Assembly: GCA_036399655.1 (NCBI GenBank)
Contig: DASWMS010000058.1
Span: forward strand, 19,043-83,042
Origin: Allosphingosinicella sp.
GTDB lineage: Bacteria; Pseudomonadota; Alphaproteobacteria; Sphingomonadales; Sphingomonadaceae
Direction of reading: 5' to 3'
Length of the DNA stretch: 64,000 bases
Part shown: in pieces, positions 2,738-63,501 of the stretch
Position numbering within the stretch: position 1 is the stretch's first letter
Layout of the letters: each line of letters begins with the position of its first letter
The notes under the pieces: generated by a model
Told to the model about the DNA's origin: nothing
What the model saw: the letters and a program-made list of their open reading frames with translations, nothing else
Database searches by the model: none
Made by a program: the position numbers and the translations under genes

Positions 2738-2766
2738 TGGGAAACCATCATTCTCTGGCTCACTCC

Positions 2767-2859
2767 GTCATTCCCGCGAAAGCGGGAATCCAGCGGGCAG
2801 CCGGCAAAGGGCGCCGCGGGCGGAGAGTCAGACTGGATCCCCGCTTTCGCGGGGATGAC
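2767..2859. repeat. REP-like inverted repeat (GTCATTCCCGCGAAAGCGGGAATCCA family)
   Basis: gtcattcccgcgaaagcgggaatcca...tggatccccgctttcgcggggatgac between accB and accC. Confidence 0.85.
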
Positions 2860-2882
2860 ATGGAGGGGGCTCGCGGCAAGCG

Positions 2883-14803: not shown

Positions 14804-14826
14804 GCGGGGGAAGGGCGAAGAAGAAG

Positions 14827-14960
14827 GGCAGGGCTTCGACAGGCTCAGCCCGAACGGGTTGTGGGTCTCGAACTCCTCTGGTGACCTCCGCGGATTGGCG
14901 CGCCCACTCCCCTCTTTCAAGAACACCGTTCGGGCTGAGCTCGTCGAAGCCCTGTCCTTC
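14827..14960. repeat. REP-like palindrome (CTTCGACAGGCTCAGCCCGAACGG family)
   Basis: gggcttcgacaggctcagcccgaacggg...ccgttcgggctgagctcgtcgaagccc. Confidence 0.8.
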
Positions 14961-15028
14961 TTTCTGATTTGGAAACGGGAAGCCAGTCGTTCGAAGCCCG
15001 GTTTGCAGCACTCTGAACCCCAAACACG

Positions 15029-16255: not shown

Positions 16256-16314
16256 GGTCGGTGCCTCTTGGTTCGCGCGCAGCGTAGCAGGCGCCGGTTG
16301 CGAGGCCGTTAAAC

Positions 16315-16484
16315 CCCTCTCCCCTTGCGGGAGAGGGAGGGGCCCGCGATGCGGAGCATCGTGGGAGGGTGAGGGCATGACGAAGGGGCCCCGCACCGCC
16401 GCCGACGCGAACCCGCACCCTTCGTTCCCTCACCCTCCCACCGCCTGCGGCGGCGGGCCCCTCCCTCTCCCGAAATGGGAGAGA
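16315..16484. repeat. Intergenic palindromic repeat (CCCTCCCC family)
   Basis: ccctctcccccttgcgggagagggaggg...ccctccctctcccgaaatgggagagg. Confidence 0.6.
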
Positions 16485-16573
16485 GGCAAGAAGTTGAAGC
16501 CTCATTCAGGTTAGCTTGACCCGTTCCGGCGCGCGCCGTATCGGCTGGGCCGCATCTTTCCAGCGGAGCGGCC

Positions 16574-24130: not shown

Positions 24131-24383
24131 CGTTCGCTCCTGAGCCTGTCGAAGGGCTGTCCTTCACTTCGGGCGCCTGAGAAAGAAAGAAGGGCAGGGC
24201 TTCGACAAGCTCAGCCCGAACGGGCGGAGGCGGCTTACCCGTTACTCAAAAGCGCCTCGTAGCACCGTTCGTCCCGAGTAGCCGTCGAGCTTGTCGAGAC
24301 GGCGTATCGAGGGACGCCTTGCGCGGGTCCTTCGATACGGCCCTCGCTACGGCTTCGCCTACTCGGTCCTACTCAGGACGAAC
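24131..24383. repeat. Two adjacent REP-like palindromic elements
   Basis: cgttcgctcctgagcctgtcgaaggg...cttcgacaagctcagcccgaacg (24131-24225) and ccgttcgtcccgagtag...ctactcaggacgaacg (24264-24383). Confidence 0.75.
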
Positions 24384-24625: not shown

Positions 24626-24730
24626 CGTCATCCCGGCGAAGGCCGGGAGAAGGGTGCAGGCGTACGTGGAGCGCTCCACAACTGCCTCCGCAACTCACCC
24701 GCTGAGATCCCGGCCTTCGCCGGGATGACG
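24626..24730. repeat. REP-like inverted repeat (GTCATCCCGGCGAAGGCCGGGA variant)
   Basis: cgtcatcccggcgaaggccgggag...tcccggccttcgccgggatgacg. Confidence 0.8.
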
Positions 24731-43549: not shown

Positions 43550-43593
43550 GCCCGCGCTTTCGCGGATCAGGGGCGGCTGTGCAAGCGATCCGG

Positions 43594-43680
43594 GCTTCGA
43601 CAGGCTCAGCCCAAGCGGGCTCGGGAGCTCACAATCCCTTGCGGTTTAAACCGCCGCTAGCCCTGAGCCTGTCGAAGGGC
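43594..43680. repeat. REP-like palindrome (CTTCGACAGGCTCAG family)
   Basis: cttcgacaggctcagcccaagcgg...ccgctagccctgagcctgtcgaag. Confidence 0.75.
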
Positions 43681-43698
43681 GAGTCACCCGCACCGGCC

Positions 43699-47315: not shown

Positions 47316-47409
47316 GTCATGCCGGACTTGATCCGGCATCCATGAACACCGGCCTGCGCGTTATCGCGCGGCCTCCTTGTTCATGGATCCTGACTTTCGT
47401 CAGGATGAC
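47316..47409. repeat. Composite REP-like element between oxidoreductase and membrane gene
   Basis: gtcatgccggacttgatccggcatccatgaaca...tgttcatggatcctgactttcgtcaggatgac. Confidence 0.8.
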
Positions 47410-51385: not shown

Positions 51386-51895
51386 TTACGGTTGGAGCCG
51401 CGCGAGGATCGCCTCGACGCCCGCTTTCACGCCCGCATCGGGAGCGTGGGCGCTCATGCCGGGCAGGATCTCCATTCGGATGATCTGCGCGGCCGTTTCG
51501 TCCGGAAGCGCCTGCCTGAGACCGTCGCCGACTGCAATTCGCACGCGCCGGTCGTCCATGGCGAAGAGCAGGATGACACCGTCGTCGTGCCCGCGCCGGC
51601 CGATGCCCCAGCGGTTGCCGAGATCGCGGGTATAGTCGGCAATGCCGCGGCCGTTCGTGGTCCGGACCGTGACGAGGATGAACTGGTGCCCCGTCCGCCG
51701 CTCGAAGCCGCGGAGGCGCTCCGCGATCCTGTGCTCGTCGGCGGCGAGGAGCATGCCGGCCGAGTCGACGACATAGGCCGGACGCTCGAGAGTGGAGCTG
51801 ACCGCCGCCCGCCCCGGCGCCTGCGCATTGCCGCCGTCGGCGGCGGGCGTGCAGGCCGCGGCGACTGCGAGCGCGGCGAACAGGACGCGCCTCAA
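51386..51895 (-). CDS. TPM-domain lipoprotein
   Basis: TTG overlaps upstream stop; AAAC lipobox; VVDSAGML, TGHQFILVT, WGIGRRGHDDGVILLFA..DRRVRIAVG.GL. Confidence 0.85.
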   Translation of the reverse strand: MRRVLFAALAVAAACTPAADGGNAQAPGRAAVSSTLERPAYVVDSAGMLLAADEHRIAERLRGFERRTGHQFILVTVRTTNGRGIADYTRDLGNRWGIGRRGHDDGVILLFAMDDRRVRIAVGDGLRQALPDETAAQIIRMEILPGMSAHAPDAGVKAGVEAILARLQP

Positions 51896-54800
51896 CGCGC
51901 CGGCACCCAGTCGGCGAGGGAGCCGCGGTCGGTCACGCGGTAGGGCAGGCCGCGGCGGTTGAGGAACAGGCGCTCCATCTCGCTGCGGGTAAAGGGACGC
52001 GAGCCGAGACGGCCGAAGACGGCGATCTGGTTGCCGGTCTCGTCGACGCCGCGGTCGCGGTCGAGCCCCTTGGACAAAGCAAGGGCGGGGGAGGGGGTGC
52101 GCGCCCAGGCGATAAGCTCGGGCACCGGCCGCGGCGAGAAGCCGTAGAAATTGGGCTGGCTCTCCGGGCTGGTGAGCTGGAACAGTTTGAACCCGTTCAG
52201 CCCGTCCGCGACGTAGGCGAAGAGCGAGGCGTTGGTCGAGCCGACGATCACGTCCTGCGCGTCCGGCGCCTGCCCCGCTGGCCAGGCCACGGCAGGTCCG
52301 GCGGCGGGCCGCTCGGGATTGGTGATGTCGAGGATCACGAGCCCGTCGCGCCCGCCCGCCACGTAAGCGTAGGTGCGGGCGAGATAGAGCCGCCGCGCGT
52401 CCGCCATCCGGTGCGTCGCTTCCGGGATCAGGCGCGGCGCGCGCAGGTCGGTGACGTCGATGAGCTGCACGCCCTCGGCGCTTGTGACCCAAAGGTAGCG
52501 GAACTGGATCGCGGACGCGCGCGCGTCGCGGAGCGGGATCGTCGTCACATGCCGCGGCGCGAGCGGCTCGTTAAGATCGACGACGACGAGCCCCGCATCG
52601 GCGGCGATGTAGGCGACGGTGCCGGCAAGCGTGATGTGCCGCGCGCCCGCGAGCACACCGCCCTCGTTCCAGGCGGTACCGCCCGCCGTGAAGGTCGCGC
52701 GACGGATGAAATTGTTGCGCGGGTCGGCGTCGGCGAGGGTGTCGACGTCGACCAGGATCAGGCCTTCCTCGGCGTCGGTGACGACGGCGTAATCGTAGAT
52801 GGGGTGGAAGCCCTGCTCCTGGTTCTCGGCAAGGAGGCTGGTCGTCGTCCCGTCCGGCTGCGGCCGCGTCGTGGCGGCCATGGCGCGGTTGCGGTCCGGC
52901 GCGATCGGCTGGTTGGTGGGGAGCGCCATGCAGGTCGCGTTGCGGCTTGCGACCCGCGTGTCCTGGCCCATGGACGAGAAGGGCGCGGTGACGATCCGCT
53001 CGGACGTGCCCTTGTTGCCGATGTTCGCGACGTCGTAGACCCGGAAGCCGCCGCTTCCTTCCGCCACGAACATATATTCGCCGCGCTGCTGGAGGCAGCG
53101 GACCGCGCCGTCCGTTCCTTGCACGACGTTGCGGAATTCCTCGAGCGGCCGCGTCTCGCCGCTGCGGTTCCGGTCGAACGTGCGCCCGCGCGTCCAGTTG
53201 ACGAGCTCCCGCCGGTTCCGCTCGACATGCATCCGGTAATAATCCGGATAGGCCATGCGCTGGAGGTAGGAGCCGATCACCGCCTGCGGCTCGTCCCATT
53301 CCGTCACCCGCACCGCTTCGAAGCCTGAGTTCAGCCCGACCCACGAGTGCATGCCGACGAAGTTGACGAAGTTCGTCCCCTGCAAAAGGAGCTGCGCCAT
53401 GATCGCATTGTTGTCGTTCGCTGCCGACACATGGCAGTCGCTGCACGTCTTGGTCTCGGTGCGGCGCACGGTGTGCGGGAAGTGCGGCGCGAAGGCCTGG
53501 CTCGAAAAGCCGGACGCCGAGATCGGCGGCTGCTGGACGTAGATGCGCTCGCGATTGATGTTGGTCGACGACAGGATCAGCGCCGAGGTCGATCGGATCG
53601 GCGCGATGATGTTGCCGCGCGTCGTCATGTGGCGGCCGAGCTGGAACATGTCCTCGCGCGCCACCTGCGGATTGTAGGTTGCGAAGTTGCGCGTCTCTTC
53701 GCCGTCGTAGCGGTGCGACGTCGTCCGCCAGTTCGCCTCGATCGGGAGGTGGCAGCCGGCGCAGCTCGTCGTCCATGAAAGGTGGCAGGTGAAGCAGGCC
53801 ATCTCGTCGTCGGGATGGGCGAGCGCGTCGTCGGCGACGCCTGCTCCAAACACGAACCGCCCGGTGTCCGCGCCCTCCCGCGACATGAGCTTGGAGCGCG
53901 CCGAAAGTTCGTTGAAGCACGGGCCGGTGCTCATCCCCTGCGACGCCGGTCCGCAGGGCGGCAAGTCCCGGTCGACACTGTCGCGGACCTGGCTCACCAC
54001 CCACTCGATCTGCGGATCGACGATCGAGCGCTGGATGAGCACGCGGCGCCCCGCATCGTCCTGCATCCATTCGAAGCGCCGTCGCCCGTCCTCGTTCCTG
54101 ATCAGCTCCAGGTTCGTGCCGTTGGGGGGCGCGGCCGGTCCGGAGGTGCGCAGGTTGGCGAAGGCGCGCGCGGTGCCGTGGCAATCCTTGCAGCTGATCT
54201 CGATGGCGTTCGCGACTTCGCCGTAGATGAAGCCGGTGCCGTGGCTGTCGCGCGAGAAATGGCAGTCCGCGCATTGCATGCCGCGCTCGGCATGGATGTC
54301 CATCATGTGCACCGCGCGCCCCGGATTGGTGCCGGGCGGGACGAACAGCCCTTCATTTTCGCGGCGGAAGGTGTTCGGGTCGCCGGGCGGAATCCGCTGG
54401 CCGTCCTCGTCGACGAGATTGCCCTCGCGGTCGCGGCGGAAGATGGCGCGGAAGTTCCAGCCGTGGCCGTGATAGTCGGCGAACTGGGTGTGGCGCGCGA
54501 GCGGGTTCACCCGGTCGTACACTTCGCGAAGGAAATCGGTCTCCGCCCAAAGCCCGCGCGGGGCCGCGCCTTCCGGATTGCGGTTGAGCACTTCCAGCGT
54601 CTCCGCCGCCGTCGGATAGCGCTGCTGGCGGAAGCGCGCTTCCTCCTCGGCATTGCGCGCGGGCAGGCGGTTCTCCGGCCCCGGCCACATCAGATCGGCG
54701 TCGGATTCGTAGTCCCACATCGTGTAGCCGAGATACGAGTTCAGGAAGATGTTCGGCTGGTGCATGTGGCAGACCATGCATTGCGACGTCGGTATCGCGC

Positions 54801-56142
54801 GCGTGAAGACGTGGCGGATCGGATGCCCGCGTTCGCGCATTGCGGCGTGATTTGTGTCCGTTGGAGCGTCGCTATGCTGCGCAGCATTTTGCGGCTCTGC
54901 GCTCGCAGTTTCCGGCCCGTGAGCGCCGCGCTCAGTCAGCCCTGAGATCGTCGGATCGACCGTCGCCGTCTGCCCGTCGCGCCCGTGCTCGGCATAAGCG
55001 AGGCTGTGCCGCGGCTCGCGGTCGTTGGCGTAGACGACATGGCAGCCCGAGCAGCCGGAGTGGCGATAATCGCCCGGCTGGTCGTTCGTCCCCATGAACC
55101 ACATGAAGGGATCGTTGAGCCGCGTCTTGTGGATGTTGAGCACGGGGATGGCGACGCGCAGCCCTGTGCCGGGTCCGCGGTTCGACTGGCGGATGTCGGG
55201 CCGCCCCGCTTCCTCCAGCCGCTGGATCGATCCCGAAGGAGAGGGGAGGCCGATCTCCGGAAATTGCGTCCCGATCGTCCGCCCGCCGCGCTCGAAGACG
55301 CGGAACACGTCGCCCGGCGGAATGACGTGCCAGGTCGGCAGCGGATAGAGTTCGGCGATCACGCCGCGCGCGCGCTGCTCCGGCGTGATCTCGCCCGGAA
55401 TCGTCCCCGGCGACTGGATGCGCGCCGGCTGGCCGGAGCGCGTATAGGCCTCGCCGAACAGATAATTCTTATAAGGGACGATGCCGTTATTGTAGGCGGC
55501 CCCGCCCCACAGCATCGCGCCCGTCGCCATGAGCGAGCGCTCGGCCGCTTCGATGATCTCGATATGGCAGGCGCCGCACGCTTCGCGCGCCGCGCGGTAA
55601 TCGGACGGGTTGTTGAAGCGCACGAACTCCGGCGATTCGATGTTGAGCAGGGTGTAGCTTTGCCGCGGGTTGGCGGAGGAGGGGAAGTGCCAGGCGGCCG
55701 GATAGCGCGGCAGCACGTGAGCGAGATCGCGCGCCGCCACATAAGCGGGATCGTTCGCGGCGAGGTTTCCCGCCGGCGCGGTGACCCGCGGATTGCCGCC
55801 GTGGCAATCGACGCAGCCGAGCACCACCGCGGGCGTCCGGTGCATCGTGTGCGAGTCGCTCCCCGTGTGGCACGACACGCAGCCCGAGCTCTGCGCTTCC
55901 GCCGCCACCGGGTCCTGCGTCCGCGGCGCCGGCGCCGCGCGCACGAGGCTGTAATCCCGCGCGACCGCCTTCTCCTTTTCGGACGCACCGGCGGGCCCGG
56001 CCAGCATCCCCGCCAACTCCGTCATTCCCGCGAAAGCGGGAATCCAGGCCCAGCCTTTCCACCCGCTTCGGCGCCCCGCGGAAACGCTCGCTGGATTCCC
56101 GCTTTCGCGGGAATGACGGCGGAGGGCGAACAGGCGCCGCAT
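51892..56142 (-). CDS. Giant decaheme c-type cytochrome with C-terminal LVIVD repeats (1416 aa)
   Basis: ATG coupled to upstream TGA (TGATG); 10 CxxCH (CVSCH, CVDCH, CGACH, CSGCH, CMVCH, CADCH, CKDCH, CFTCH, CAGCH, CSDCH); about 6 repeats like YAYVAGGRDGLVILDITNP. Confidence 0.88.
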   Translation of the reverse strand: MRRLFALRRHSRESGNPASVSAGRRSGWKGWAWIPAFAGMTELAGMLAGPAGASEKEKAVARDYSLVRAAPAPRTQDPVAAEAQSSGCVSCHTGSDSHTMHRTPAVVLGCVDCHGGNPRVTAPAGNLAANDPAYVAARDLAHVLPRYPAAWHFPSSANPRQSYTLLNIESPEFVRFNNPSDYRAAREACGACHIEIIEAAERSLMATGAMLWGGAAYNNGIVPYKNYLFGEAYTRSGQPARIQSPGTIPGEITPEQRARGVIAELYPLPTWHVIPPGDVFRVFERGGRTIGTQFPEIGLPSPSGSIQRLEEAGRPDIRQSNRGPGTGLRVAIPVLNIHKTRLNDPFMWFMGTNDQPGDYRHSGCSGCHVVYANDREPRHSLAYAEHGRDGQTATVDPTISGLTERGAHGPETASAEPQNAAQHSDAPTDTNHAAMRERGHPIRHVFTRAIPTSQCMVCHMHQPNIFLNSYLGYTMWDYESDADLMWPGPENRLPARNAEEEARFRQQRYPTAAETLEVLNRNPEGAAPRGLWAETDFLREVYDRVNPLARHTQFADYHGHGWNFRAIFRRDREGNLVDEDGQRIPPGDPNTFRRENEGLFVPPGTNPGRAVHMMDIHAERGMQCADCHFSRDSHGTGFIYGEVANAIEISCKDCHGTARAFANLRTSGPAAPPNGTNLELIRNEDGRRRFEWMQDDAGRRVLIQRSIVDPQIEWVVSQVRDSVDRDLPPCGPASQGMSTGPCFNELSARSKLMSREGADTGRFVFGAGVADDALAHPDDEMACFTCHLSWTTSCAGCHLPIEANWRTTSHRYDGEETRNFATYNPQVAREDMFQLGRHMTTRGNIIAPIRSTSALILSSTNINRERIYVQQPPISASGFSSQAFAPHFPHTVRRTETKTCSDCHVSAANDNNAIMAQLLLQGTNFVNFVGMHSWVGLNSGFEAVRVTEWDEPQAVIGSYLQRMAYPDYYRMHVERNRRELVNWTRGRTFDRNRSGETRPLEEFRNVVQGTDGAVRCLQQRGEYMFVAEGSGGFRVYDVANIGNKGTSERIVTAPFSSMGQDTRVASRNATCMALPTNQPIAPDRNRAMAATTRPQPDGTTTSLLAENQEQGFHPIYDYAVVTDAEEGLILVDVDTLADADPRNNFIRRATFTAGGTAWNEGGVLAGARHITLAGTVAYIAADAGLVVVDLNEPLAPRHVTTIPLRDARASAIQFRYLWVTSAEGVQLIDVTDLRAPRLIPEATHRMADARRLYLARTYAYVAGGRDGLVILDITNPERPAAGPAVAWPAGQAPDAQDVIVGSTNASLFAYVADGLNGFKLFQLTSPESQPNFYGFSPRPVPELIAWARTPSPALALSKGLDRDRGVDETGNQIAVFGRLGSRPFTRSEMERLFLNRRGLPYRVTDRGSLADWVPAR
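56019..56119. repeat. REP-like element in frame within N-terminus of giant cytochrome
   Basis: Same family as 2767-2859; translates RHSRESGNP...WIPAFAGMT. Confidence 0.85.
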
Positions 56143-58160
56143 CAGTAAGTCACGATCGCGTTCAGGAGCACGGAATAGTATCGGTCGTGCCGGGGCTGGT
56201 TGGCGAACAGGTCGCGAAAGCCGGTGCCGGGCTGCAGCGCCGCCGCCGAGGCGCGGAAGACGAGGTTCTGAGTCATGCGCGGCCGCCAGATCGCCGCCGC
56301 CGACACGTCGAAGCCGATGTCGTTGCGGATGGTCCCCTGCATCCGCAGCGCCTCCATCGTGCCCGTCCGCGCGAACCAGAGGTGGTTCAAGTTCGCCGAC
56401 AGCCGGAAGGTCGGCGTGATGTCGAAGTCCGCGCCGGCCCCCAAGAGGATCGTTCCCGGATTGACGAAGTTCGACTGCCCCTGCTCCTTGGAGGAGCGCA
56501 GCGAATTCAGGATGCCGTTGCGCCCGCTGAGGACGATCGCCCGCCCGCCGCCGGCAAACGGGATGGACTGGCGGATCCAATAGCTCGTGTCGGCGCCTGC
56601 GAAGATCGGGTTCTCGAAGATCGAATCGAACCCGCTTTCGACATTGTCGTAAGGATCGCCGTCCCCGCTCGCGAACAGGGCGGCCCCGCGCACCCTGATC
56701 CAGTTCATGTCGTAGCTCGGCTCCGCGGCGGCGAAGAAGCTCGTAATCCGCGCATTCTCGCCGGTGAAGATGTTCTTCCGGTTGTGCCCCAGCGCCGCAT
56801 AGGTCTGCGCCGAAAGGTTCACCCGCCCGATCCGCCCGTCGGCGGCATAGCCGACGTACAGGACGTCGTAATTGCGCCCGCGCAGGTTTCCGATCAGCGC
56901 CGGCCGCACCGGAAAGCCGTTGTCGTCCACCTCGACATCGCCGCGCTCGCGGTTGACGTTCAAGGTGACGCTCGCCTGGCTCGTCATGCCGACGAAGGGG
57001 AAATCCTGGCGGTAGACGTTCGCCGCCAGGATCCAGTCGCTCCGCGGCCATTGCAGGATGTTGTTGAGGCCGGAATTCGTGTCCTTTTCCAGCCGCCAGA
57101 TCGCCATGACATTGTACTGGAACCGGTTGTTGTCCCGATTGCCGAACAGGCGGACGCCGAGCTGGTTGTCGTTGAACAGGAAGCCGCGGAAATCGAACTG
57201 GAAGGGCTGGATGCCGACGCGGACCGAGTCGAAGTCGTAGCGGTCCGACACGTTGCGCAGATGGTCGTCGACGAACAGTTCCTGGACGCCGATCGCGTAA
57301 TCGAAGCGGTTGGTGCCCTTGGACGGCTCCACGAAGAGCACCCGCCGCTCCGGCACATCGACATAGTTGGCCTGCACCGCCAGGGTGACCCGATATTCGC
57401 GGTGCGGCGGCATGTAGGCGGTCGAGCCCTCGATCAGCGCGGCGCCGACGATGAACGTCTGGGCGAGGACCAGGCTCTCGCTGCGCCCGAAGACGTCGAG
57501 GCTTCCGGGACGCTGCGTCGTCTGCACGCCGACGGGGATCGGAAAGTTGCGCGGCTCGATCACCGTGTCCGAGACGGCGTTCGCGACCAGGAACCAGCCG
57601 TCGCCGTGGAGGCCGAGCGCGCGCGTCAGCCGGCAGCCGTAGCTGCGCGGCCGCTCCTCGCCGACGCAGAGCGGCCTGTCGCCCTTCAGCGTGTTCTGGT
57701 TGTAGGGATCGAACCAGCGTTCCCGCACCACGCCCAGCGACTCGATGAGCCGCCAGCGGTCCGGAACCGGAATCTGGTCGGTTGGAAACGCTTCGGGCGG
57801 CGGCGATCGGATTGCGCCCGGATTCTCCTGCACGACCGGATCGGGAAGCTCATGCTGCGGCGTTCCGGGGCGGCGTCGGCCTTCTTCGTCCGGCGTCTGC
57901 TCCTCCGGGCGCTCGGCGGGCGGCACCTGCCCGGGCCACCAGCCCGGCTCCTGCTGCGTCGGCGGCGTCGAGGGAGGCTGCGCCGCCTGAGCCCACACCG
58001 CGTCATTCCCGCGAAAGCGGGAATCCATGAACACCGCGTGCGCAAATCTTTCCCCGCCTGTGTTCATGGATGCCGGATCAAGTCCGGCATGACGGGGAAG
58101 GGCTGCACCGCCCGGATCGAGGGCGGCGGCGAGGTGGAGGAGCGGGCCTGCAACCTGCAC
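56142..58160 (-). CDS. Predicted outer-membrane beta-barrel protein
   Basis: GTG 2 nt after upstream stop; Pro/Glu-rich N-region, then amphipathic strand patterns; C-terminus YYSVLLNAIVTY ending in an aromatic residue. Confidence 0.72.
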   Translation of the reverse strand: MQVAGPLLHLAAALDPGGAALPRHAGLDPASMNTGGERFAHAVFMDSRFRGNDAVWAQAAQPPSTPPTQQEPGWWPGQVPPAERPEEQTPDEEGRRRPGTPQHELPDPVVQENPGAIRSPPPEAFPTDQIPVPDRWRLIESLGVVRERWFDPYNQNTLKGDRPLCVGEERPRSYGCRLTRALGLHGDGWFLVANAVSDTVIEPRNFPIPVGVQTTQRPGSLDVFGRSESLVLAQTFIVGAALIEGSTAYMPPHREYRVTLAVQANYVDVPERRVLFVEPSKGTNRFDYAIGVQELFVDDHLRNVSDRYDFDSVRVGIQPFQFDFRGFLFNDNQLGVRLFGNRDNNRFQYNVMAIWRLEKDTNSGLNNILQWPRSDWILAANVYRQDFPFVGMTSQASVTLNVNRERGDVEVDDNGFPVRPALIGNLRGRNYDVLYVGYAADGRIGRVNLSAQTYAALGHNRKNIFTGENARITSFFAAAEPSYDMNWIRVRGAALFASGDGDPYDNVESGFDSIFENPIFAGADTSYWIRQSIPFAGGGRAIVLSGRNGILNSLRSSKEQGQSNFVNPGTILLGAGADFDITPTFRLSANLNHLWFARTGTMEALRMQGTIRNDIGFDVSAAAIWRPRMTQNLVFRASAAALQPGTGFRDLFANQPRHDRYYSVLLNAIVTY
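58001..58094. repeat. Composite REP-like element in frame within beta-barrel N-terminus
   Basis: cgtcattcccgcgaaagcgggaatccatgaaca...tgttcatggatgccggatcaagtccggcatgacg; translates RHAGLDPAS...MDSRFRGND. Confidence 0.85.
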
Positions 58161-58162
58161 GC

Positions 58163-60118
58163 CTATCGCCCCTGGCAGACATTCTGGTCGTTCGATCCGA
58201 GGAACGGCGTGAACGGGCAGCCGACATAGCGCAGCCGCACCTGATCGTTGCCGACCCGGCCGAATATCTGGTCCGATCGGATTGCCGGATCGGCATTGTT
58301 GACGCTCGTCGTGCGCACGCCCGCATTGTGGATGCCGAGGAACGAGATCATGTCGTCCTGGTCGATGCCGTCGCCCGAGACGCCGAGTCCGCCGATGAGC
58401 TGGTTGCCGCGATAGACGGGGACCGAGCCCGGAAAGATCTGGATGCCGTTCGCAATCCGGTTCGTGCCGGGAAGGCCGGTGCACTGGCTCGGCGCGTCCG
58501 CGCCGCCGCCGAGGATGAAGCCGACATGGGCGCGCACGTCCTGCTCGATCAGCGCCGATTGCAGCCCGGTCGAGAAGGGGTTGAACTCGGCGATGCTGCG
58601 CGACAGCGGCCCCGGCGGGCGGCCGAGCTCGCCGTCCGGGAAATAAGGGCGGTGGATGTTGCCGATGGCGCGATCGGACCAGGCGGTCTGGCCGGTGAAG
58701 ATCGCGTTCGTGCCGAAGAAGGCGCGCGACGCGGCGACGAACTGCCGCACGTCGGGATCGGCGTGCATGTCGAGCTGCGCCGCCGCCATCGGGTGGCTGA
58801 AGTACATCGCCGTGCGCGCCTTTTGCAGCGACACGTCGATGCCGAAGATGGGCGCGTCGGGCGAGCGGACGATGCCGAGCACGGCACCGTTCGTGTCCAC
58901 CAGCGAGATCGTCACTTCCGCGCGGCTGTCGAGCGGGCGGCGGATCTGCGCCCGCGCTGCTGACATGATCCGGAACGCCTCTTCGAGCAAAGCCCGCGAC
59001 TCCGCTGCGGTGATCGGCTGCGGGATCGAGTCCAGCGCGGCGCGCACCGGGAAGCGGTTGGTGCCCCCGCCGTCGGAAAGGACGAACGCGTCGGGGTTCG
59101 AGAATTCCGCCAGCGTCGCCGCGCGGATGCCGGAGCCTTCGCTCCCGTAGGCGCGGCCCGCCTGCATGCCGAAACTGGGGTCGTAATAGCCGCGCACCGG
59201 AACGAGGCTGCCCGGGATCGAGCCGAAGGCCGGCGCGCTCCCGCCCTTGAGGTCGTTCGCCTCGACGTCGCTGTAGCGCAGCAATGTGCCGTCCACGCTG
59301 ATCCGCTCTGCGCGAATGCCTTCGGGCGCTTCGAAGCCGCGCGTCGCGGCGAGCGCGATCGCTTCCTCGTCGTCCTTGTCGGTGTCGCGCACTTCGGGAT
59401 CGAAGCCGTAGACCCCGTCCGCCATGATCCCGACGCCGCCGATCAGGACTCCGTTCCGGTAGAGCGGGAAGCCTCCGGGATCGGCGGCCAGGCCGAGCGG
59501 CGAGCGCTTCGGCCCGATGAAGGCGCTGCCGCCGCCGACGCCGTTATAGCGGGTGTTGAGGTCCGAGCAGGGAAGCTGGCTGAACTGCACGCCGAACAAA
59601 GGCCCGCTTTCCAGCCCGCGCGTGGCGGCCGACGGCGGGAAATGTTCCTGCACGATCATGCTCGCCGTGCGCGTCGAAAAGGCATTGCCGCCCGAGGAGA
59701 GATAGGCGCCGGTCACCGCCTTGGCGATCGCCCCCGCCACCGCGCCCGGCACGTCGATGCCCTGGAGATCGTTCATGCTCCCGTTCGGGGCGTTCGGCAC
59801 CCGGAGCTGCTGGTTGGCCCCGGTCATTGAAAAGACGGCAAGCACGTTGCCGACCCGGTCGACCACAGCGATGTTGGCGGGCCGCCCGCGCGCCGCCGCT
59901 TCGCCGGCCGCATTGGCGATGACCTGCTGGACGTCGGCGACGCTCAGCGCTTCGGGGGCCGGCACCGAATAGAGCCTGGCGGCCGGCGGCGGGTTCGGCG
60001 GGGGAGGGGGCGAGGGGGGTGCCTCGCCGCCGCCGCCTCCGCCCCCTCCGCCGCCGCCTCCCCCGCACGAAGCTAGGAGCAGGGCCGCGATGGCGAGGGC
60101 GGAGGCGGCGCCGCGCAT
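58163..60118 (-). CDS. Lipoprotein with two GlcG/HbpS-like heme-binding domains
   Basis: Lipobox LASC, Gly13/Pro linker; IAVVDRVGNVL..AIAKA.T, ISLVDTNG..SLQKARTA, GGFPLY..IGGVG, GSVPVY..IGGLGVSG. Confidence 0.82.
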   Translation of the reverse strand: MRGAASALAIAALLLASCGGGGGGGGGGGGGEAPPSPPPPPNPPPAARLYSVPAPEALSVADVQQVIANAAGEAAARGRPANIAVVDRVGNVLAVFSMTGANQQLRVPNAPNGSMNDLQGIDVPGAVAGAIAKAVTGAYLSSGGNAFSTRTASMIVQEHFPPSAATRGLESGPLFGVQFSQLPCSDLNTRYNGVGGGSAFIGPKRSPLGLAADPGGFPLYRNGVLIGGVGIMADGVYGFDPEVRDTDKDDEEAIALAATRGFEAPEGIRAERISVDGTLLRYSDVEANDLKGGSAPAFGSIPGSLVPVRGYYDPSFGMQAGRAYGSEGSGIRAATLAEFSNPDAFVLSDGGGTNRFPVRAALDSIPQPITAAESRALLEEAFRIMSAARAQIRRPLDSRAEVTISLVDTNGAVLGIVRSPDAPIFGIDVSLQKARTAMYFSHPMAAAQLDMHADPDVRQFVAASRAFFGTNAIFTGQTAWSDRAIGNIHRPYFPDGELGRPPGPLSRSIAEFNPFSTGLQSALIEQDVRAHVGFILGGGADAPSQCTGLPGTNRIANGIQIFPGSVPVYRGNQLIGGLGVSGDGIDQDDMISFLGIHNAGVRTTSVNNADPAIRSDQIFGRVGNDQVRLRYVGCPFTPFLGSNDQNVCQGR

Positions 60119-63359: not shown

Positions 63360-63483
63360 CGTTCGTCCTGAGTAGGGATCGAGTAGGCGAAGCCGTATCG
63401 AGAGCCCGTATCGAAGGACATCCGCCGCGCGCGGTCCCTCGATATGCCGTCTCGACAAGCTCGACGGCTACTCGGGACGAACG
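63360..63483. repeat. REP-like palindrome related to 24264-24383
   Basis: ccgttcgtcctgagtag...ctactcgggacgaacgg. Confidence 0.75.
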
Positions 63484-63501
63484 GACGTGGCGGAGACGAA
63501 C

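Follow-up and report, generated by a model that had tools for sequence, protein, structure and literature searches.

Can palindromic repeats of a kind that mostly lies between genes sit in frame in the N-termini of two consecutive genes and leave both products functional? The question is raised by a 64,000-nucleotide stretch of an Allosphingosinicella genome (GCA_036399655.1, contig DASWMS010000058.1, positions 19,043 to 83,042; G000:C58:19043-83042 in the numbering used here), hereafter the window. The genome, G000, measures 3.63 Mb at 68% GC. On the minus strand of the window, the gene for an outer-membrane beta-barrel or porin-like protein of 672 residues (56142..58160) is followed by an intact gene for a decahaem c-type cytochrome with LVIVD repeats (51892..56142; 1416 residues), and each carries a palindromic repeat close to its 5' end. 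An initial annotation of the window had noticed these repeats and had proposed that the one in the cytochrome might impair export, mark early decay or be tolerated. Both are head-to-head dimers of repetitive extragenic palindromes (REPs) bearing a CGTC tag. Comparison with orthologous loci indicates that they are probably coding, tolerated and in part co-opted, within proteins that would be made from start codons upstream of the repeats, exported and functional.

Two consecutive genes carry CGTC-tagged REP dimers

The first element (minus strand, 56020..56118; CGTCATTCCCGCGAAAGCGGGAATCCAG ... CTGGATTCCCGCTTTCGCGGGAATGACG) is a 99-nt dimer of CGTC-1 REPs, with inverted arms that are perfect over 29 nt, and is read as cytochrome residues 9-41. 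The second (minus strand, 58001..58094) is a hybrid that joins a CGTC-1 hairpin unit (ATTCCCGC/GAAA) to a CGTC-2-like unit (ATGCCGGA-CTTGA-TCCGGCAT), and its bases 58002-58094 correspond to barrel residues 23-53. The initial annotation was correct in placing repeats inside both genes and in describing them as open in the gene's own frame, with translations that give exactly the peptides it quoted. It had also reported kindred units between genes, and these are present as a CGTC-1 dimer at 2766..2860, a dimer of the CCCGGC-stem subfamily at 24626..24730, and a plus-strand copy of the ATGCCGGA-CTTGA unit, equivalent to one arm of the barrel insert, at 47316..47339. By chance no repeat matches are expected in the window (0 in 100 shuffles).

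CGTC-tagged REPs, divided into CGTC-1 and CGTC-2, were described by Di Nocera, De Gregorio & Rocco (2013, BMC Genomics 14:522, PMC3733652) as a superfamily that is abundant in Alphaproteobacteria and that also includes the Rickettsia palindromic elements (RPEs) RPE-4 and RPE-6 and the Neisseria dRS3 elements. Sphingomonas wittichii and Sphingopyxis alaskensis are among the hosts named, and a dedicated transposase was not found (PMC3733652). The same study already reported intragenic copies, including some in tRNA synthetase genes of S. alaskensis, and deemed REPs at N-termini to be mostly annotation artefacts. The repeats analyzed here have the anatomy of this superfamily. The tag stands at the outer end of each unit (CGTCAT... 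at 56020, 56118 on the minus strand, 58001, 58094 on the minus strand, and in the intergenic copies), followed by an 8-bp stem that begins with AT, a loop of 4 nt (type 1) or 5 nt (type 2) and a CCA tail, so that the two unit types read ATTCCCGC-GAAA-GCGGGAAT-CCA and ATGCCGGA-CTTGA-TCCGGCAT-CCA.

Across the genome, G000 holds 481 units composed of GTCAT and a hairpin, 320 of which make up 160 clean inverted dimers, 92-93 nt being the commonest length. Conservation among genomic copies is at least 90% in the arms, which enclose a spacer of ~38 nt that is nearly free to vary. On a gene map of G000 built for this analysis (3180 genes, 85% of the genome), 125 of the 160 dimers are intergenic, at a median distance of 25 nt from the facing 3' end. 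The high copy number, the head-to-head arrangement and the proximity to 3' ends of open reading frames (ORFs) that characterize CGTC REPs are all found in G000, and the cytochrome REP begins 25 nt past the barrel stop codon. Three more dimers do lie within genes, in linkers between domains of GlyS-beta, PutA and LigD, and all of them are read in the hydrophilic frame RHSRESGNP...LDxRFRGxD. The GlyS-beta gene (G000:C96:30060-32708) has two 68-nt dimers, 126 nt apart and in frame, within the region matched by Pfam tRNA_synt_2f. A candidate intragenic copy at C102:22508 was rejected, as it lies upstream of the real start of a thiolase gene. Dimers are also found in tandem clusters that have the look of arrays of bacterial interspersed mosaic elements, two of them on C18 (G000:C18:2237-2823 and C18:6478-6895; 3-4 dimers each with a period of ~165 nt) and one, irregularly spaced, on C17 (C17:19890-22521). 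The inserts in the cytochrome and barrel genes measure 99 and 93 nt, against GTCAT..ATGAC cores of 97 and 92 nt; an argument based on length modulo three was dropped, because the ends of an element can be defined only where the mechanism of its insertion is known.

The cytochrome signal peptide with and without the repeat

Orthologous loci were drawn from 19 genomes of the genus and from 80 GTDB species. The signal-peptide region of the cytochrome (codons 1-53; minus strand, 55984..56142) was aligned with REP-free orthologues (G002, L020 and L021) and assessed for hydropathy. Empty sites with clean signal peptides occur in G002, L020, L021, L033 and eight others, and the leaders at these sites are ordinary (G002, MRPLFPLAAAALIAAGALFAGSVEA|SEKAK; L020, MRAVLILAALIAAGAIGSSQVEA|SEKEK; L033, MRRLLPFSLLAAIVAAPLIAA|EGEK). 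In G000, MRRLFALR is followed by 33 REP-coded residues and then by ELAGMLAGPAGA|SEKEK, with cleavage predicted after AGA and before SEKEK. Since REP-free sister species have clean leaders, the dimer splits the signal peptide, and the location proposed in the initial annotation is borne out by the alignment. Relatives with ~92% DNA identity in other soil metagenomes carry neither insert.

The insertion is not confined to G000. A REP occupies the same spot in 8 of ~29 loci (G000, L027, L029, L031, G015, G023, G012 and G003) and in ~27 of the 110 closest database homologues with a locatable N-terminus, out of ~690 homologues retrieved at E <= 1e-10. In L031, which belongs to strain CPCC 101701 (NZ_JBHTDC010000002), cleavage is predicted at LIAA|EGEK. 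Stem types vary among carriers (ATTCCCGC, CCCGGC and, in G012, a CGTC-2 left arm), as do REP lengths and the distance from the ATG (18-34 nt), and on the barrel tree the carriers are dispersed, with REP-free sisters beside them. This variety of types and lengths, together with the patchy distribution, argues for several independent events. The inserts of G000 and L027, both of which read AGPAGA|SEKEKAVARDYSLVR, probably stem from one event.

The 3' arm of every carrier translates to [W/G]-[I/V]-P-A-F-A-G-[M/K]. A lone REP unit, contained entirely within a textbook leader, is present in three homologues; in the one whose DNA was checked (P0011), the single unit is part of a 29-residue signal peptide that precedes SEKE and begins at a TGATG start. 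The uncharged run up to the cleavage site comprises 18-26 residues (median 22) in 12 of 13 REP-bearing leaders, of which 9-11 come from the REP arm and the remainder is native, and 16-21 residues in 12 REP-free leaders. The attributes of a Sec leader, namely a basic n-region, an uninterrupted hydrophobic core of at least ~10 residues and small residues at positions -3 and -1, are likewise present in 12 of the 13 REP-bearing leaders, with cleavage sites AGA|S or LAA|E. The eight residues before WIPAFAGM contain 2.5 Lys or Arg on average, compared to 1.24 in the same frame of 250 intergenic copies. The difference gives p = 6e-4 over the 8 loci and p = 2e-3 when these are counted as 6 putative events; both values are optimistic, the counted events being partly related by descent, and this belongs with the unfavorable points weighed below. 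The spacer seems to have been shaped into an n-region.

The barrel repeat and the variable linker

In REP-free orthologues, the barrel ATG overlaps the stop codon of the upstream gene, which encodes an HbpS/GlcG-like lipoprotein (minus strand, 58163..60118), and a plain leader (e.g. MRLAALLLLASAGAPALA|QTLPPP) is followed by a hypervariable linker, rich in Pro, Ala and Glu and 30-190 residues long, that extends to a conserved GRRRPG motif. The N-terminus of the G000 barrel reads MQVAGPLLHLAAALDPGGAALP, then 31 REP residues, then AVWAQAAQPP, and this order of core, REP and linker puts the dimer past the hydrophobic core, where the variable linker begins. The N-terminal, in-frame position given by the initial annotation therefore stands, with the qualification that the repeat lies just behind the hydrophobic core, in the hypervariable linker, and not in the core itself. 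The barrel start in G000 is predicted to be the GTG at 58160-58158 (start and signal-peptide core MQVAGPLLHLAAALDPGGAALP; minus strand, 58095..58160), which is homologous to the ATG of L027 and other orthologues. The TAG stop of the lipoprotein gene lies 68 nt upstream of the barrel REP, and the junction of the two genes reads TAG-GC-GTG. At 58158-58168 of the window, the ancestral ATGA overlap of lipoprotein stop and barrel start has become ATAG, the ancestral ATG now being ATA; the GTG, two codons downstream of the lost ATG, is the probable present start.

A 93-nt dimer with the same left unit is found at the same barrel position in L021, L027, L022, G014, G022, L026 and L028, and the site holds a decayed copy in G019 and a nested one in L039. 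Another palindromic family (the CCCTCTCCC type, read as PLSPxGRG) occupies it in G023, G003, L030 and L035. In L039 (JAXDPA010000142.1), the barrel N-terminus contains the left half of a CGTC-2-type dimer and, behind it, nested palindromes of the CCCCTCCCC type, with the frame kept throughout. Such an arrangement suggests that one repeat can enter another here, or take its place.

Start codons and probable translation of the repeats

If both genes started at or after their repeat, for instance at the ATG of the terminal ATGAC, the repeats would be extragenic and would act only as RNA or DNA elements. Such an explanation agrees with the opinion of Di Nocera et al. that N-terminal REPs are mostly annotation artefacts (PMC3733652), and the REP end does supply an in-frame ATG, which gene callers chose in 6 of ~27 database entries and which our own start finder also selected. 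The upstream sequence, however, is preserved as coding sequence would be. In all eight cytochrome loci found by synteny alone, an upstream ATG shares the frame of the gene, and no stop codon interrupts that frame across the REP. The same prediction was tested on four database entries that had been called from the REP's terminal ATG, all with a REP dimer upstream of the called start, and an in-frame, open upstream ATG was present in each of them, bringing the count to 12 of 12 cytochrome loci chosen regardless of gene calls. The frame upstream of the REP would be kept because these codons are translated; otherwise nothing maintains it, and it would be found by chance with a probability of 1/3 per independent event. 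Individual loci point the same way: in L107 a strong Shine-Dalgarno sequence (AAGGGGGG) precedes the upstream ATG by 5 bases, and in G003 the interval between REP and cleavage site contains no ATG, GTG or TTG.

The leaders that downstream starts would produce also argue against an extragenic position. Starting at the REP ATG would leave the cytochromes with leaders of 8-15 residues and not one Lys or Arg, and the barrel with an N-terminus (MDSRFRGND...) devoid of any hydrophobic core, whereas a decahaem cytochrome and an outer-membrane barrel both require Sec export. In the case of the cytochrome, the Sec leader is required because haem is attached to c-type cytochromes in the periplasm. The barrel signal peptide, for its part, is in frame with the mature protein in every N-terminus that can be read from an upstream start. 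The possibility that the true starts lie downstream of the repeats, which the initial annotation had raised against its own reading, thus finds no support, and we regard it as very unlikely; translation would run through the repeats from upstream start codons.

Selection, export and decay

The ratio of nonsynonymous to synonymous substitution rates (dN/dS) against relatives is 0.13-0.28 for the barrel gene and 0.10-0.26 for the cytochrome gene, and these comparisons include G000 versus L027 (dS ~0.55), in which both genomes carry both inserts. Both genes are under purifying selection. This bears on the proposal that the inserts mark early decay, with the conduit genes losing export and becoming pseudogenes in G000. 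The leaders of G000 are what speaks for decay, as the cytochrome signal peptide is the weakest of 25 and has Glu42 in its core, and the barrel leader has lost its ancestral ATG and contains a His and an Asp. The remainder of the genes tells against it: both frames are intact over ~2090 codons, none of the 10 CxxCH motifs is missing, comparison with the nearest relatives gives a dN/dS of 0.10-0.18, the terminal branch of G000 (0.072) is no longer than those of its sisters (0.057-0.093), and many species whose leaders are good retain the same inserts. Decay is hence very improbable. Among the three outcomes contemplated by the initial annotation, tolerance is the one favored by the comparison, the inserts being old and recurring across the genus in genes under purifying selection, and partial co-option has to be added to it. 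Logan contigs of the source metagenome break at the repeats.

Several points nevertheless weigh against the reading of both repeats as tolerated coding sequence. Glu42 divides the hydrophobic run of the G000 cytochrome leader into 12 and 11 residues, and its best 10-residue hydropathy is 1.21, versus 1.8-2.6 in relatives. The early Asp and the His of the barrel signal peptide add to this, and with weak leaders on both proteins export in G000 could be impaired. The codon-usage start finder and public gene callers often pick the ATG of the REP's terminal ATGAC, and no RNA runs holding this stretch were found. Codon 42 (56016-56018), directly after the REP-coded GMT, is GAG (Glu), and it is this one base change that makes the G000 leader the weakest of the 25. 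The 12 other REP-bearing leaders have an uncharged residue (L, A, V, I or M) at that position, and G003 has a Lys in place of the arm's final Met. The initial annotation was accordingly right to see no clean hydrophobic core in G000, although the statement does not extend to its REP-bearing relatives. On the preferred reading, the weakened signal peptides of G000 would still be competent for export.

RNA structure of the repeats

At the RNA level, element 1 is predicted to fold into a near-perfect long hairpin (-96.4 kcal/mol, z -9.3) and element 2 into a four-way junction (-55.3 kcal/mol, z -4.3). Among eight orthologous barrel copies of the same length, the four-helix junction is paired in 94% of cells, and 6 of its pairs show compensatory changes. 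None of 500 shuffles attained the pairing or the covariation score of the real alignment, and 6 of the 500 attained its count of compensated pairs. The spacer is free among these eight copies, sister taxa being alike (L022/G014; L026/L028), and the coded residues change non-conservatively, as in DSRFRGND, DSGLRRND and GPGFRRDE. With variable residues and preserved helices, what is conserved in the barrel copies is the hairpin, not the peptide. Matches in Rfam were limited to a chance, sub-threshold one to a miRNA precursor.

These results raise the possibility that the hairpins are kept for an RNA-level job, shielding the upstream mRNA or tuning coupling or stoichiometry, and that the peptide is merely the price. 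Both dimers are as far from the upstream stop codon as REPs usually are, the folds are very stable, pairing and covariation are maintained while spacer and amino acids vary, and about a quarter of orthologues have a REP at the cytochrome junction. On the other hand, conserved arms around a free spacer are the pattern of all genomic copies, so that it is by itself no proof of local function, gene conversion or repeated replacement would look alike, and many orthologues do well without the insert. We view an RNA-level role as a tentative proposal, compatible with the repeats being translated and tolerated. A related possibility, held just as tentatively, is a dual-coded and partly domesticated repeat, in which the hairpins serve in their REP role for the upstream cistron and the WIPAFAGM arm and basic spacer end are selected in the leader. 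If this were true, the hairpins might act on transcript ends, on stability or on the coupling of the upstream cistron, and REPs would time and again have furnished material for the cores of signal peptides where operons are dense with genes.

Proposed origin and implications

The preferred reading, of coding and tolerated REP dimers, suggests the following course of events. Dimers in this genome usually sit a few tens of bases past a stop codon, and in this operon, where genes abut or overlap (TAG-GC-GTG, TGATG), this usual position would fall in the coding sequence of the following gene, near its 5' end. Surviving copies would be those that keep the frame, contain no stop codon and encode a peptide suited to its place. 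Read in the hydrophilic frame (RHAGLDP...DSRFRGND), the barrel copy would add 31 residues after the signal-peptide core, where the linker starts. For the cytochrome, a long basic extension of the n-region would come from the 5' arm and spacer, and the 3' arm (W-I-P-A-F-A-G-M-T) would supply the first half of the hydrophobic core, joined to the native half. Both proteins would be made from the upstream starts and would still be exported and functional.

In-frame insertion of RPEs or REPs as such is well known. What appears to be new is a well-supported example in which survival depends on frame and insertion recurs at one operon junction. The reading frame appears to govern where a copy survives, the hydrophobic frame in signal peptides and the hydrophilic one in linkers. 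There is also a practical side, as the inconsistent starts set by gene callers deprive 6 of ~27 database entries of their signal peptide, and localization predictions for the porin-cytochrome conduit, which resembles ptd, would consequently be wrong in many genomes. Lastly, orthologues with no repeat, a single repeat or a double repeat constitute a natural series of leaders for gauging the insertion tolerance of a Sec leader.

Locus organization and other repeats in the window

The lipoprotein, barrel and cytochrome genes are co-directional and follow one another in this order on the minus strand. The barrel TGA stop and the cytochrome ATG share an A in a TGATG junction. The barrel protein is widespread in Sphingomonadales and has no match in Pfam. 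The cluster is similar to the uncharacterised ptd porin-cytochrome cluster (bioRxiv 10.1101/2023.11.21.568154). In L003 (G017), L004 (G022) and L011 (G020), the barrel gene is followed not by the cytochrome gene but by other, partly repeat-rich sequence, so the cluster has been rearranged within the genus. In L019 (G024:C1:302000-307600), which belongs to a genome of 3 contigs that is 54% complete, the matches to barrel and cytochrome are spread over several shifted frames; the genes may be genuine pseudogenes, or the shifts may be errors of a long-read assembly.

The window also contains at least three other palindromic families, at 14821-14965, 24184-24224, 43579-43693, 1244-1364, 16314-16486 and 24265-24369 / 63376-63484. 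Their types are GGGCTTCGACAGGCTCAGCCCGAACGG, CCCCTCTCCC...GGGAGAGGG and a 51-nt inverted pair with 98% identity whose members are 39 kb apart. The CCCTCTCCC type is the one found at the barrel site of G023, G003, L030 and L035.

Comparison with known repeat systems

Neither an autonomous parent nor a long element bounded by the repeat termini was found in G000, and the flanks of the repeats show no consistent direct repeat that could represent a target-site duplication. An origin as miniature inverted-repeat transposable elements with a parent insertion sequence was rejected, given the lack of target-site duplication and the ordinary genes held by long terminus pairs (pheS in the one inspected). 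In the REPIN/RAYT system, doublets of GTAG-tagged REPs are mobilised by Y1 transposases. The dimers described here resemble REPINs in that two short palindromes are paired in inverted orientation, that conserved arms enclose a variable spacer and that the whole could form a long hairpin, but their tag is CGTC instead of GTAG, and no match to the Y1 transposase family (PF01797) was obtained in G000. Y1 genes are present in 17 of 31 genomes of the genus, and at four Y1 loci inspected in relatives these repeats do not flank the gene. Tag, missing transposase and unflanked Y1 genes led us to reject a RAYT/REPIN origin.

A closer likeness is to the RPEs (Ogata et al. 2000; reviewed in PMC10969869), which are likewise palindromes that have entered unrelated genes in frame, at surface or linker sites where they are tolerated and compatible with protein function. 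Compatibility of in-frame insertion with function also appears to apply here, to the cytochrome, the barrel, GlyS-beta, PutA and LigD, in keeping with the purifying selection. The initial annotation had likened the repeats to RPEs, and this kinship is confirmed insofar as RPE-4 and RPE-6 bear the CGTC tag and have been placed in the same superfamily (PMC3733652), in a comparison made by the tag. The host differs, being a free-living soil member of the Sphingomonadales, as do the sequence families, and RPE-1 is longer (~150 bp). We know of no report of an RPE inserted into the core of a signal peptide, and no mention was found in the literature of the peptide motifs coded here or of REPs in signal peptides.

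The CGTC REPs themselves provide the closest match, in tag, stem, loop, CCA tail, dimers and hundreds of copies downstream of ORFs, and the absence of a dedicated flanking transposase that is typical of them is also seen in G000. Beyond what is described in PMC3733652, the present locus has a repeat at a signal-peptide site, a 3' arm that would serve, in one particular frame, as hydrophobic core and recurrence at one orthologous site. The two accounts differ on N-terminal copies, which PMC3733652 holds to be probably misannotated and which the orthologue comparison made here indicates to be coding, so that an "extragenic" palindrome at the 5' end of a gene can be coding sequence and not a misannotation.

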